From a virus (lineage: Duplodnaviria > Heunggongvirae > Uroviricota > Caudoviricetes), in IMG/VR virus record IMGVR_UViG_3300042256_000013, positions 64,001-128,000 of that record: DNA of 64,000 nucleotides, one strand, 5' to 3'. Below are positions 15,088 to 38,151 of this stretch, in pieces. A program made the translations under genes and the position numbers. Below the pieces are notes generated by a model, which saw nothing but the letters and a program-made list of their open reading frames with translations, made no database searches and was not told the origin of the DNA. Numbering within the stretch: position 1 is the first letter of the stretch; every line of letters starts with the position of its first letter.

Positions 15088-15207
15088 CGACGAGTGGTGG
15101 ATTCGAACCACCGACCTGGCCATTAAAAGTGGATGAAGTATAGTTGCTGCAAAATTACATACTGTAATTTGGGGGTTCTACCTGCTCTACCACTGAGCTA
15201 ACTCGTC
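15088..15207 (-). ncRNA. tRNA-Lys(TTT)-like RNA with ~48-nt CAGCA-module insert in anticodon stem
   Basis: GACGAGT/ACTCGTC acceptor, D and T arms; GG-[insert with AAATTAC/GTAATTT-TGCAGCAA]-CCA-CTTTTAA-TGGCC. Confidence 0.85.
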
Positions 15208-23125: not shown

Positions 23126-23242
23126 CGGTGAGTGCAGGAATCGAACCTACGACGACGGCGTGACAGGCAATAAGTGTATGCTGTTAGATTCAGTACTGGA
23201 ATCCATTTTATAAACGCTATTTTACCACTAAACTAACTCACC
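23126..23242 (-). ncRNA. tRNA-Asp(GTC)-like RNA with ~46-nt CAGCA-module insert
   Basis: GGTGAGT/ACTCACC acceptor; GCG-[..GGATTC-CAGTACT-GAATCT-AACAGCA..]-GC-CTGTCAC-GCCGT; T arm GTAGG-TTCGATT-CCTGC. Confidence 0.85.
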
Positions 23243-24653: not shown

Positions 24654-24775
24654 TGCAGGGGGATGGAATCGAACCACCGACACGGAGTTTTACTTAGAAG
24701 AAGATAAATGCTGTTAGAATCTTAGTACTAGATTCAATGATTTCTCTCCTGCTCTACCAACTGAGCTACCCCTGC
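24654..24775 (-). ncRNA. tRNA-like RNA (Phe-like body) with CAGCA-module insert
   Basis: GCAGGGG/CCCCTGC, GCTC-AGTTGGTA-GAGC, GGAG..GAATCT-AGTACTA-AGATTC-TAACAGCA..CTCC, GGTGG-TTCGATT-CCATC; anticodon not callable. Confidence 0.82.
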
Positions 24776-32036: not shown

Positions 32037-32112
32037 TAGTGGCTCATACCAGATTCGAACTGGTGTGGACAGAGATTTAGAGTCTCCCGCTACGCCTCTC
32101 AGCTAATGAGCC
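32037..32112 (-). tRNA. Amber suppressor tRNA(CTA)
   Basis: GGCTCAT/ATGAGCC-A, GGAGA-CTCTAAA-TCTCT, ACCAG-TTCGAAT-CTGGT. Confidence 0.9.
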
Positions 32113-36089: not shown

Positions 36090-36424
36090 TTAGCACCTCC
36101 GTGAAATAGTTGATATTTCTTGAAGATACTACGCTGTTCAGCAGTTACTGGAGCACTTGCAAATGCAGTAAAGCCATAATCCCAATCAGGTTCATGGAAC
36201 TGGACAAATCCAATACCAGAATCATTGAGTTCATCAAATGCTTTTTGTAACTTATGTTTATTCTTACATGAAATAACGATAAGAGAACTAGTCTCAGTAC
36301 TGTTATTTTCGAAGGCCAAGCCGCTTTCATAAGCTGCGTGGTTTGATTGTACTACAATCTGTTCTAACGGTAAGTCCGTGCGAACAAATACGTAGATCCA
36401 AGTTTTTTCATTCTAGTGAGCCAT
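36086..36424 (-). CDS. Pth2-like peptidyl-tRNA hydrolase with in-frame TAG at codon 4
   Basis: GAGGA RBS, ATG GCT CAC TAG AAT..., then WIYVFVRTDL..QIVVQSNHAA..LIVI..F.EPDWDYGFTA; TAG at 36413-36415. Confidence 0.78.
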
Positions 36425-36448
36425 TTTTATTTCCTCTATTTTGGTTAC

Positions 36449-36655
36449 TTAACTTTGGTTTTTTACTTCTTCCCAACGCCACAAATTACCATTTACTGGC
36501 ATAGTGTCATTAGTATCCTGAACAACTTCACCTTCGTAGATAATTGGAAGGGAAAGTTCAAAACGAGTGTTATTATTTAACAGATAACTAGCCTCAATTA
36601 TTGTACCTAATGGCACTTTTTGACCAGCAGAAAATACACATACAAATTTAGCCAT
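36449..36655 (-). CDS. Hypothetical protein
   Basis: 68 aa, GAGGA RBS. Confidence 0.7.
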   Translation of the reverse strand: MAKFVCVFSAGQKVPLGTIIEASYLLNNNTRFELSLPIIYEGEVVQDTNDTMPVNGNLWRWEEVKNQS

Positions 36656-36678
36656 TATGATTCCTCTATTAATTAAAA

Positions 36679-36924
36679 GGCCGTTGATGGTGTGCTATTA
36701 CGCCAAAGTCTCTAAGGGCATATATTAACATTGGACTTGATCCCAGGCTATCATACCCTTCGCATCCTTAGATCCATGCTGCTCATGAACCATATTAATA
36801 TATTCATTTCAGATTCTTCCCCTGAGCTTATACGGTTCCTAATTATGATAGATTTCGGAATACGGATCGCTCTTGACACTCATTATATGGTGGCTGCTTT
36901 CAAGCCTACATCCCAACAACGGTC
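36679..36924 (-). ncRNA. 23S rRNA GTPase-associated-centre (H43/H44) mimic RNA with internal insertion
   Basis: GGGATGTAGGCTTGAAAGCAGCCACCATATAATGAGTG ... GGCGTAATAGCACAC, closed by CCGTTG/CAACGG. Confidence 0.75.
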
Positions 36925-36932
36925 AGTGTTTG

Positions 36933-37130
36933 TTACATTTTAACTAGTTTGATTTCAACTAGTTCTACTTTGAAGTCAGGATGTTCATCTTCCCAATCTT
37001 CGCCGTATAGACGCACCATTTCATCAATGGCATCGCCTTTATATTTGAACATAGTAGTGAGGAACAGATCCGTAGTACGTGAATCATGTCCAGCCCAATA
37101 CTTAGTACTGTATTCTTGATCAATTTGCAT
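36933..37130 (-). CDS. Hypothetical protein
   Basis: 65 aa ORF. Confidence 0.7.
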   Translation of the reverse strand: MQIDQEYSTKYWAGHDSRTTDLFLTTMFKYKGDAIDEMVRLYGEDWEDEHPDFKVELVEIKLVKM

Positions 37131-37443
37131 TAACTATCTCCATCCACTCATCATGAGTTTTAAACTGTTTGTACTTTTCATATGCTTTTTCGGTTAATAC
37201 ACGAAATGCAACTTCAGACGTTTCCGATTCATTCCTGAATTCAAAGTACTGGAATATATTTTGTAGTACTGAGTGAATGAGACTTGATTTAATATGATAA
37301 TAAATCAAATCGTCAATGTGGTCATTTGGATATTCACCTAATGATTTCAATTCCTGTATTTTTTTATCCCGAAGAATAAATTGACGACCATTCATTTCAA
37401 GTGCATGAGACAATTCATTTACTAGCTGATAATTAATTTCCAT
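37120..37443 (-). CDS. Hypothetical protein
   Basis: 107 aa ORF. Confidence 0.75.
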   Translation of the reverse strand: MEINYQLVNELSHALEMNGRQFILRDKKIQELKSLGEYPNDHIDDLIYYHIKSSLIHSVLQNIFQYFEFRNESETSEVAFRVLTEKAYEKYKQFKTHDEWMEIVNAN

Positions 37444-37452
37444 ATCAGTACC

Positions 37453-38151
37453 TTAGTATCCATCATAGTTGTCAGGATGCAAGACAACAATCTCAATTAC
37501 ATCGTTGACATGAGTTTCGTTCTGATAGAACACAATAACCTTACCATGATTTACAGAATCAATCAAGTACCGCAAGATACCTTTACTGGTATAAACACGT
37601 TCAATTACACCAGTGTCTTCAATTACAGTACCATCAATTGTAGTACTGAATTTGACTTCATCCAGGTAATTAGGTTTATCTTTCAGGAAGTTCTGCAATT
37701 CTTCCTGTTTACGCCAAGCAGATTCACGTTTTAAACGTGACGCATTACGTACCATATATTCTGGAGTACTGTAATCAAAATCTGCAACAGTGGTTAAAGT
37801 ACCTTGACCATAAACACTGGTAATACGAATTCCAAAGTTAGGAAGTTCAATGTAATACGTTGGAAACGTAGCCGTCAAATCTTCGTAATCTGAACGTGCA
37901 TTATTTTGTGCATAATTCCAGAAAAGATTAGAAATTTCTGGATGTGGTGCATCTTCTGGATGGAACGTATAACTACCATCAACAAAGAATGTACGAAGAT
38001 AATCAAGTTCAGTTTTGAACGATTCTTCAGTATATGCCCTTTCTTCATCAATAGTATATCCATAGATTGATTTATATAAATCAGCCTTTGACATATTATC
38101 AAGTGCTTTTTGTGCCAATTCTAAAGATTTGCTTAATTGTGGCTCAGACAT
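37453..38151 (-). CDS. Hypothetical protein
   Basis: 232 aa, SVYGQGT. Confidence 0.8.
   Translation of the reverse strand: MSEPQLSKSLELAQKALDNMSKADLYKSIYGYTIDEERAYTEESFKTELDYLRTFFVDGSYTFHPEDAPHPEISNLFWNYAQNNARSDYEDLTATFPTYYIELPNFGIRITSVYGQGTLTTVADFDYSTPEYMVRNASRLKRESAWRKQEELQNFLKDKPNYLDEVKFSTTIDGTVIEDTGVIERVYTSKGILRYLIDSVNHGKVIVFYQNETHVNDVIEIVVLHPDNYDGY

Follow-up and report, generated by a model that had tools for sequence, protein, structure and literature searches.

A probable RNA gene of large phages that reproduces the fold of the 23S rRNA GTPase-associated centre

Why should a phage carry, away from any ribosomal RNA (rRNA) gene, a stretch of DNA that reads like the GTPase-associated centre (GAC) of 23S rRNA, and what could such a copy do? 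The question is raised by the IMG/VR virus record IMGVR_UViG_3300042256_000013, a phage genome of 371 kb with direct terminal repeats, of which bases 64001-128000 were analysed as a single stretch of 64,000 nucleotides (nt), hereafter the window. By BLAST against cultured phages, the nearest cultured relatives of this phage are jumbo phages of the GAP32/CBB/BF type. A GAC-mimic RNA element, present in one copy in the genome, lies on the minus strand of the window and consists of two halves of the GAC separated by a structured insert. The locus is very probably a gene for a non-coding RNA (ncRNA) with the GAC fold. Its parts are as follows, with numbers such as 1067 referring to Escherichia coli 23S rRNA as given by the real rrlH gene of NC_000913.

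36922-36681, minus strand: the GAC-mimic RNA element, 242 nt, intergenic.
36917..36922, minus strand: 5' strand CCGUUG of the closing helix (pairing 36922-36917), which sits in place of helix 42 (H42).
36878..36917, minus strand: 5' half of the GAC copy, equivalent to 1051-1090 by colinear alignment to rrlH.
36911-36887, minus strand: helix 43 (H43, 1057-1081), with A1061 at 36907, G1067 at 36901 and C1072 at 36896; U1090 is at 36878.
36704..36877, minus strand: structured insert of 174 nt between 1090 and 1091.
36686..36703, minus strand: 3' half of the GAC copy, equivalent to 1091-1108 by alignment to rrlH.
36703-36693, minus strand: G1091 at 36703, C1092 at 36702, the loop GUAAUA (1093-1098) at 36701-36696, G1099 at 36695 and A1101 at 36693.
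36681..36686, minus strand: 3' strand CAACGG of the closing helix, then CCUUUUAAUU.

The resemblance was proposed in an initial annotation made from the sequence alone, and the strings quoted there were found on the minus strand at 36914-36877 (5' piece) and 36704-36690 (3' piece). Its E. coli 1051-1108 sequence is identical to rrlH, and the CCGUUG/CAACGG helix (36922-36917 with 36686-36681) is present as described; after a U.U mismatch this helix goes on as UGG/CCA. In silico excision of the insert lets the flanks align to E. coli 23S 1055-1100 without a gap over the junction (E = 1e-3 for the window copy and down to 4.5e-15 for relatives, in a constant register), which puts the insert precisely at the boundary of the 1090 and 1091 equivalents. 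The element has the colinear sequence and the secondary structure of 1051-1108, that is, H43 and helix 44 (H44) on a closing helix, and it is not part of a 23S rRNA gene, as its flanks are open reading frames (ORFs) with no further rRNA similarity. When a profile of the RNAs with the largest inserts was compared with the E. coli rRNAs, the GAC region was the sole match. Remaining short BLAST matches of inserts to rRNA were set aside, as they looked like chance.

BLAST and two IMG/VR pattern scans gave a family of about 84 homologous loci with 65 distinct inserts, all from large phages. The search for relatives in phage genomes suggested by the initial annotation was thus answered by a conserved family with homologues in cultured phages: the element is unannotated and intergenic in Erwinia phages including Kaldavass, and in Xanthomonas XbC2, Serratia BF, Pectobacterium CBB and Cronobacter GAP32. 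More distant BLAST matches were found in Acinetobacter ME3 and Xanthomonas XacN1, and later ones in Ralstonia RSP15, Yersinia fHe-Yen9-03/04, Xanthomonas XaC1, Pseudomonas pf16 and Astolliot, and the Prevotella Lak megaphages. Among 185,579 prokaryote genomes scanned there was a single match, on a 1.8-kb contig of a metagenome-assembled genome. The covariance search that had also been suggested matched no Rfam family to the element: at gathering thresholds only transfer RNAs (tRNAs) were reported in the whole window, and Rfam 15 gave no match at E up to 10 over 36500-37100, nor at E up to 1 on eight relatives. A description of a phage GAC or of a phage rRNA mimic was not found in the literature searched.

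One contig, L023 (IMGVR_UViG_3300029849_000007), holds at about 2400-2650 only the 3' third of an element of the large type, directly preceded by two tRNA genes; this is a truncated or rearranged copy.

Single-sequence minimum free energy folding of the element was uninformative (z = -1.55), and the case for structure is therefore made by covariation. RNAalifold, run on 13 diverse family members, predicts the closing helix together with H43 and H44, and within the insert three more helices; compensatory changes are seen in 26 of the 36 pairs. Every column of the closing helix shows compensatory changes, and the helix varies freely between families, having 9 bp in XacN1 and 14 bp in RSP15.

The tertiary contacts of the GAC carry the argument further. 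Conservation was tabulated by E. coli position over 53 distinct copies; the search patterns partly bias the family statistics, and the conservation of each half was judged solely on loci whose search pattern did not fix that half. Position pair 1058-1080 is found in four forms across these copies, U-A, A-U, G-C and C-G. In the E. coli GAC, C1072 and C1092 form a cis Watson-Crick/Hoogsteen pair with a further C1072-G1099 bond, and G1071 and G1091 pair with a further G1071-C1100 bond (PMC2952862). In the phage family, 1072 equals 1092 in all 53 copies and follows the 1092-1099 pair with no exception, as C with C-G (n = 21, the window among them), U with U-A (n = 23) or U with U.G (n = 9). Both the C and the U state of this contact occur inside single families, namely the GAP32-like family (the window and L002 against L029), L052/L085 and the UGC-type families. 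G1071 with G1091-C1100 is invariant, and U1082/A1086 is jointly swapped to A/U in four copies of the lineage of the window, which itself has A/U. The contacts 1072/1092-1099, 1071/1091-1100 and 1082/1086 of the GAC fold are thus all present. Position 1061 is A in the window and in 24 of the 53 copies, the same substitution (U1061A) that has been introduced in the laboratory to stabilise the GAC tertiary fold (PMC1802607).

The covariation of the tertiary contacts argues that the two halves of the element come together as a GAC-like domain, and the alignments indicate that selection maintains the GAC tertiary fold. The central proposal of the initial annotation, an RNA copy of the uL11-binding GAC, is in this respect borne out by the alignment, the covariation and the roughly 84 phage loci.

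Two side observations concern the fold. At L041:3152-3427 (minus strand), a second insertion, a hairpin of about 36 nt, interrupts the 3' strand of H43 at the point equivalent to 1078/1079, marking a second permissive site in the GAC fold. In one RNAalifold alignment (A2, columns 304-318, equal to window 36705-36691), the UG of the linker that follows the insert pairs with C1102 and A1103, replacing the native G1087-C1102 pair; the conserved linker could thus be a competitor of the lower H44 stem, leading to an alternative conformer.

Which bases are fixed and which are free bears on what the RNA may be read by. U1060, U1066, G1071, U1083-A1085, G1087, A1088, G1093, U1094 and A1098 form an invariant fold core. 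The interface of the uL11 C-terminal domain comprises 1058-1060, 1062-1065, 1075-1083 and 1088, and this domain recognises the tertiary structure of the RNA (PMC1802607); the interface nucleotides are invariant or covarying in the phage family. The initial annotation had treated the retention of both signature loops as a functional argument, and this did not hold. The AG-to-GA change that it noted in the 1067 loop is confirmed, with G at 1067 (position 36901) and A at 1068, and among the distinct copies 33 have A1067 and 20 have G1067. Positions 1068-1070 also vary; 1095 is A in 50 copies, C in two and G in one, 1096-1097 are nearly free, and the window, with G1067 and A1095, keeps only the second of the two conserved loop adenines. 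The bases that contact thiostrepton, the uL11 N-terminal domain and the GTPases are thus the least constrained part. To judge from the aligned copies, selection acts on the fold and on the face read by the RNA-binding domain of uL11, not on the two "signature" adenines; this makes the thiostrepton and direct-GTPase readings less likely and points to a partner able to recognise the folded domain. The fixed C-terminal-domain interface and fold core would fit the option that the RNA binds or senses uL11.

From the sequence match, the covarying fold, the fixed insertion site, the spread through phages and the tRNA-type genomic context we infer a stable, highly structured ncRNA of about 240 nt, whose ends would fold as the GAC, with H43 and H44 on a short closing helix. 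The 174-nt domain would branch from the 5' strand of H44 between 1090 and 1091 and be retained as an expansion segment of the mature RNA, with the opposite strand of H44 continuous and a U-rich linker of 4 nt letting the branch return. Such an RNA would present a folded GAC away from the ribosome and capture a protein that recognises this fold. The first candidate would be host uL11, bound via its C-terminal domain, because this domain reads the tertiary fold and exactly that surface is conserved. As free or exchangeable uL11 is drained, uL11-dependent processes would be weakened, for example the activation of RelA, for which uL11 is required. Domains of uL11, translational GTPases or RelA/SpoT are not encoded in the source genome, and any protein partner is therefore probably supplied by the host. 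On balance we lean towards a decoy or mimic that acts off the ribosome; for the narrower case of a stable off-ribosome decoy of the folded GAC, whatever its partner, the chances seem evenly balanced, and uL11 as the partner is a tentative and, taken by itself, rather unlikely assignment.

The large relatives invite a wider interpretation, in which the RNA mimics the whole factor-binding site, that is, the GAC as well as the sarcin-ricin loop (SRL), and captures a factor docking at that site, which could be RelA, a translational GTPase, or else a toxin or defence enzyme attacking that region of rRNA. All inserts of at least 313 nt (six insert families, Lak relatives included) have a hairpin of the form xGUAC-GNRA-GGAxx followed by GAMUUAA, and this SRL-like hairpin is often an exact match of 12 or 13 nt to E. 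coli 23S 2653/2654-2665. Smaller inserts, that of the window included, have a plain hairpin at the same place before the GAMUUAA motif, commonly with a GCGAAG-type loop, which also speaks for the wider interpretation, as does the toxin Tre23, which ADP-ribosylates H44 at 1095-1098 (PMC8661411). Against such a whole-site mimic, one large-type lineage has AAGC and no GNRA loop, and the window has CAUG-AGCAG-CAUG where a hairpin resembling AGUACGAGAGGA, with its bulged-G motif and GNRA loop, would be expected. The bases used by the factors, thiostrepton and Tre23 (A1067 and 1095-1097) are precisely the variable ones, EF-G and EF-Tu are too abundant for titration, and the genome has no translational GTPase, RelA/SpoT or uL11 of its own. 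We consider this wider interpretation, the main rival of the decoy reading, unlikely. Taken over all its members, the family shows a tendency to combine both rRNA components of the factor-binding site, with the window member carrying the GAC alone.

The only exact AGUACGAGAGGA (the SRL 12-mer) elsewhere in the genome lies inside a 448-codon ORF and was rejected as a chance match. The Lak megaphages, with genomes of about 540-550 kb, hold relatives of one of the SRL-carrying families; these are unannotated elements of the large type in Lak-A1, Lak-A2, Lak-B1 to B9 and Lak-C1 (e.g., MK250022.1 420037-420364), with 73% identity over about 320 nt.

Across the family the inserts measure 82-358 nt and always lie at 1090/1091. 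The window insert, described in the initial annotation as structured and with a long stem, does have such a stem and belongs to the main type, a three-way junction in the order P_i, RA, P_a, A, P_b, UAGA, P_i and UUUG linker.

36875..36877, minus strand: 5' strand GUC of P_i, pairing with the trinucleotide GAC at 36710-36708.
36710-36704, minus strand: 3' strand of P_i (trinucleotide GAC, 36710-36708) and the UUUG linker (36707-36704), which leads back to G1091.
36824..36872, minus strand: P_a arm, with GAGC (36872-36869) paired to GCUC (36827-36824).
Within P_a, minus strand: the conserved strands GAUCCGUA and CCGUAUAA and a variable hairpin at 36860-36836.
36715..36822, minus strand: P_b and the domain that it encloses, with GGGG (36822-36819) paired to CCCU (36718-36715).
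36803-36792 with 36731-36720, minus strand: P_c, a long AU-rich stem inside the P_b domain, which covaries.
36787-36775, minus strand: apical hairpin CAUG-AGCAG-CAUG inside the P_b domain, then GAUCUAAG at 36774-36767.

P_i, formed by the first 3 nt of the insert and the 3 nt before the linker, is fully paired in 61 of the 65 distinct inserts, in 15 complementary sequence types. The 4-nt linker is UUUG in 61 of them, UUUA in three and UUGG in one. In relatives, P_a takes the forms GAGC/GCUC, GAAC/GUUC, CGUG/CACG and GAGU/ACUC. The inserts of other families go down to 82-105 nt; these differ in their interior and lack the main-type core. The 3' strand of H44 (1099-1102) is uninterrupted by the insert, so that the upper and lower parts of H44 could stay stacked with the insert branching off, a geometry that would be that of an expansion segment.

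It may also be asked whether the insert is itself the working part, with the GAC fold as a very stable clamp or carrier, perhaps locked by uL11, that protects and presents a variable domain. Inserts that vary widely in size and architecture on a constant clamp are what this would predict, and the three-way junction core of the main type is conserved as strongly as the GAC halves. However, a plain helix or a tRNA-like fold would suffice as a carrier, the retention of base triples and of a uL11 interface seems costly, and the shortest inserts lack the common core with the GAC part unchanged. A carrier role is accordingly held to be quite unlikely.

A lower estimate still is given to the insert as an intron, either self-splicing or cut by an enzyme, which would leave a mature GAC hairpin RNA of about 70 nt. 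Its removal restores a perfect H44, the insertion is exact to the nucleotide, and the last base is U for the upstream piece and usually G for the insert, as might be expected of group I. Nevertheless, the covariance-recognisable core of a group I intron (P3-P9 and the guanosine site in P7) was not detected, and no group I or group II signal was seen in Rfam, even a weak one, at E up to 10 for the locus and E up to 1 for the eight relatives. The last base is A in three of the 65 distinct inserts, so that a terminal G is not constant, and neither a U.G pair in P1 nor an internal guide sequence pairing with the upstream piece could be drawn. Inserts of 82-105 nt have no common catalytic core. Alleles lacking the insert were absent from three IMG/VR pattern scans, the two matches of the third scan being true 23S rRNA. 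Contigs from three wastewater RNA libraries span the junctions unspliced (36816-36986 at the 5' side; 36669-36808 and 36666-36812 at the 3' side) with no joined form, a weak hint given that DNA carry-over is possible and rare spliced forms would be invisible. Group I intron and bulge-helix-bulge readings were rejected on the junction anatomy and the missing core, and we regard an intron as improbable; most likely the RNA retains the insert permanently.

The initial annotation had also left open whether the element is a leader or a discrete RNA, and here the genomic setting of the family is informative. Of the 84 loci, 31 have a tRNA gene on their own strand no more than 21 nt away and 46 have one within 300 nt, and all 57 tRNAs within 1 kb of an element are on its strand. 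In RSP15, a perfect TTGACA-17-TATAAT promoter (12/12) is found 23 nt upstream of the element; in XacN1 the element is flanked by a promoter-like site and, at its other end, a terminator, and in L018 a terminator follows it after 6 nt. In a 307-kb phage contig (L024:7552-7919), a full transfer-messenger RNA (tmRNA) gene (Rfam, 86 bits) precedes the element by about 750 nt, with tRNA genes on both sides. No protein gene next to the element is common to the families. The promoters and terminators of the relatives, and the tRNA genes 2-21 nt away, favour the discrete RNA of the two options and disfavour the leader. Judged by this arrangement, the family appears to behave as a discrete stable-RNA gene that is probably processed together with tRNAs in many phages.

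In the window the nearest tRNA gene is 2.7 kb off, in a region that holds 25 tRNA genes in 64 kb, and the immediate neighbours of the element are ORFs.

37130-36933, minus strand: small flanking ORF upstream, on the strand of the element.
36655-36449, minus strand: small flanking ORF downstream, on the same strand, 68 codons.

It is this arrangement, with the element between same-strand ORFs, ending 25 nt short of the next start codon and followed by a U-run, that would suit a leader or attenuator acting in cis, which senses free uL11 and, as ribosomal-protein leaders do, regulates the ORFs that follow it. What lies downstream, however, changes with every family, from a tRNA to a terminator to unrelated ORFs; ribosomal-protein genes are absent from the vicinity, and the ORFs that flank the window element have no Pfam family. 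A cis-acting leader is therefore rated more improbable even than an intron. Nor did the link that the initial annotation had drawn to the neighbouring genes survive: the element was said to lie directly upstream of an amber-gated operon, but the 68-codon ORF intervenes, and a connection with the neighbouring genes that contain UAG is unsupported, tRNA genes being the only context common across families.

Some further observations on the neighbourhood may be recorded. The two ORFs read through UAG (36424-35526), with UAG translated as Q, gave no Pfam match, and an ARAGORN tRNA at 32039-32112 (minus strand) has the anticodon CUA, of the amber-suppressor type and labelled Pyl. Three Rfam tRNAs of 117-122 nt at 15088-15207, 23126-23242 and 24654-24775 (minus strand) were missed by ARAGORN; two of them have an insert of about 46-48 nt in the region of the anticodon stem, with a GCAGCAAC/ACAGCA motif, and these inserts look unrelated to that of the GAC. 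In XacN1 (L008:637-1287), the element is immediately preceded by a gene annotated as a 2'-5' RNA ligase, a neighbour not seen in other families.

That the element is a dead fragment of host 23S rRNA acquired by the phage, which similarity to 23S rRNA might suggest, has a negligible probability, given that it covers just the 58-nt domain with precise boundaries, has family-specific features foreign to E. coli rRNA (U1090-A1101 and GCACAC), covaries over about 84 loci in a way that denotes purifying selection on structure, and is matched only once, on the short contig mentioned above, in the prokaryote genomes.

Several points weigh against the favoured reading of an off-ribosome decoy of the GAC with uL11 as its first candidate partner. 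uL11 is an abundant protein that is mostly bound to the ribosome, and titration would therefore need a very abundant RNA. The window RNA is placed between ORFs, and no convincing promoter-like site and no terminator-like site was called in 36300-37500, which leaves room for a role in cis. An insert that is elaborate and conserved, and SRL-like in large relatives, suggests that the partner may see more than the uL11 site. To these may be added the partial bias of the family statistics and the possible DNA carry-over in the RNA-library contigs, both described above.

How does the element compare with known systems? It shares with the bacterial 23S GAC (H42-H44, the 58-nt domain of uL11 and thiostrepton) the secondary structure, the tertiary contacts and the interface for the uL11 C-terminal domain. 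It differs in being a free-standing gene, in which H42 is replaced by an arbitrary closing helix without the uL10 site, the domain is split after 1090 by 82-358 nt, the 1090-1101 pair is U-A where rRNA has A-U, and A1067 and 1095-1097 are unconserved.

The ribosomal-protein leaders (for example those of L1, L10, L20 and S15) also imitate an rRNA site, as partial mimics in cis-acting 5' untranslated regions (UTRs) of the cell's own operons. Like them, the phage RNA would be an off-ribosome RNA that imitates a protein-binding site of rRNA and, as proposed here, competes for a ribosomal protein. Unlike them, it is a discrete gene, a near-complete copy with tertiary contacts and unlinked to ribosomal-protein genes: it does not lie in the 5' UTR of an operon for the bound protein, as there is no uL11 gene and the downstream context varies. 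A mimic of the uL11 site is not among the Rfam families matching here.

In oligoribonucleotide experiments on the "ribosome in pieces", isolated GAC and SRL RNAs reportedly bind EF-G, which would be a precedent for ribosome ligands recognising a free RNA copy. 4.5S RNA shares a decamer with 23S 1068-1077. These are laboratory fragments or a similarity of 10 nt, whereas the phages encode the whole domain and large relatives fuse to it an SRL-like hairpin. Phage tRNA arrays and tmRNA share the genomic setting of the element. RNA mimicry of tRNAs, promoters and antitoxins is known, and to our knowledge no free-standing gene has been described that copies a functional rRNA centre down to its base triples. 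Phage RNA decoys such as the pseudo-ToxI antitoxin mimic (PMC3475682) follow a similar logic of mimicry, with the difference that the present element imitates a piece of rRNA and not a tRNA or antitoxin. Neither Rfam 15 nor the literature searched yielded a record of a functional rRNA centre being copied by a phage gene, here in many cases with an SRL-like hairpin attached and with tRNA arrays as its surroundings.

In its broadest form, the proposal is that large phages encode a free-standing RNA model of the factor-binding site (the GAC, plus the SRL in the big versions) that captures a host protein reading this site, be it uL11, RelA or a defence toxin. This is a possibility that we put forward tentatively, somewhat short of an even chance. 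Capture of such a protein would switch off a ribosome-linked alarm or attack. If true, this would be the first known imitation of a functional rRNA centre by a virus.

The RNAs of the family amount to a natural mutagenesis series of the GAC, with the permissive 1090/1091 site and the frequent A1061, which is useful to those who study RNA folding and to ribosome engineers. Cultured carriers exist, making the family directly testable. Widespread in the largest phages among tRNA and tmRNA genes, the family is probably part of the takeover or protection of translation. Should the partner be uL11 or RelA, it would represent a new viral route to silence the stringent response; should it be a toxin, the family would be a sign of anti-phage defences that attack the ribosome at its GAC.

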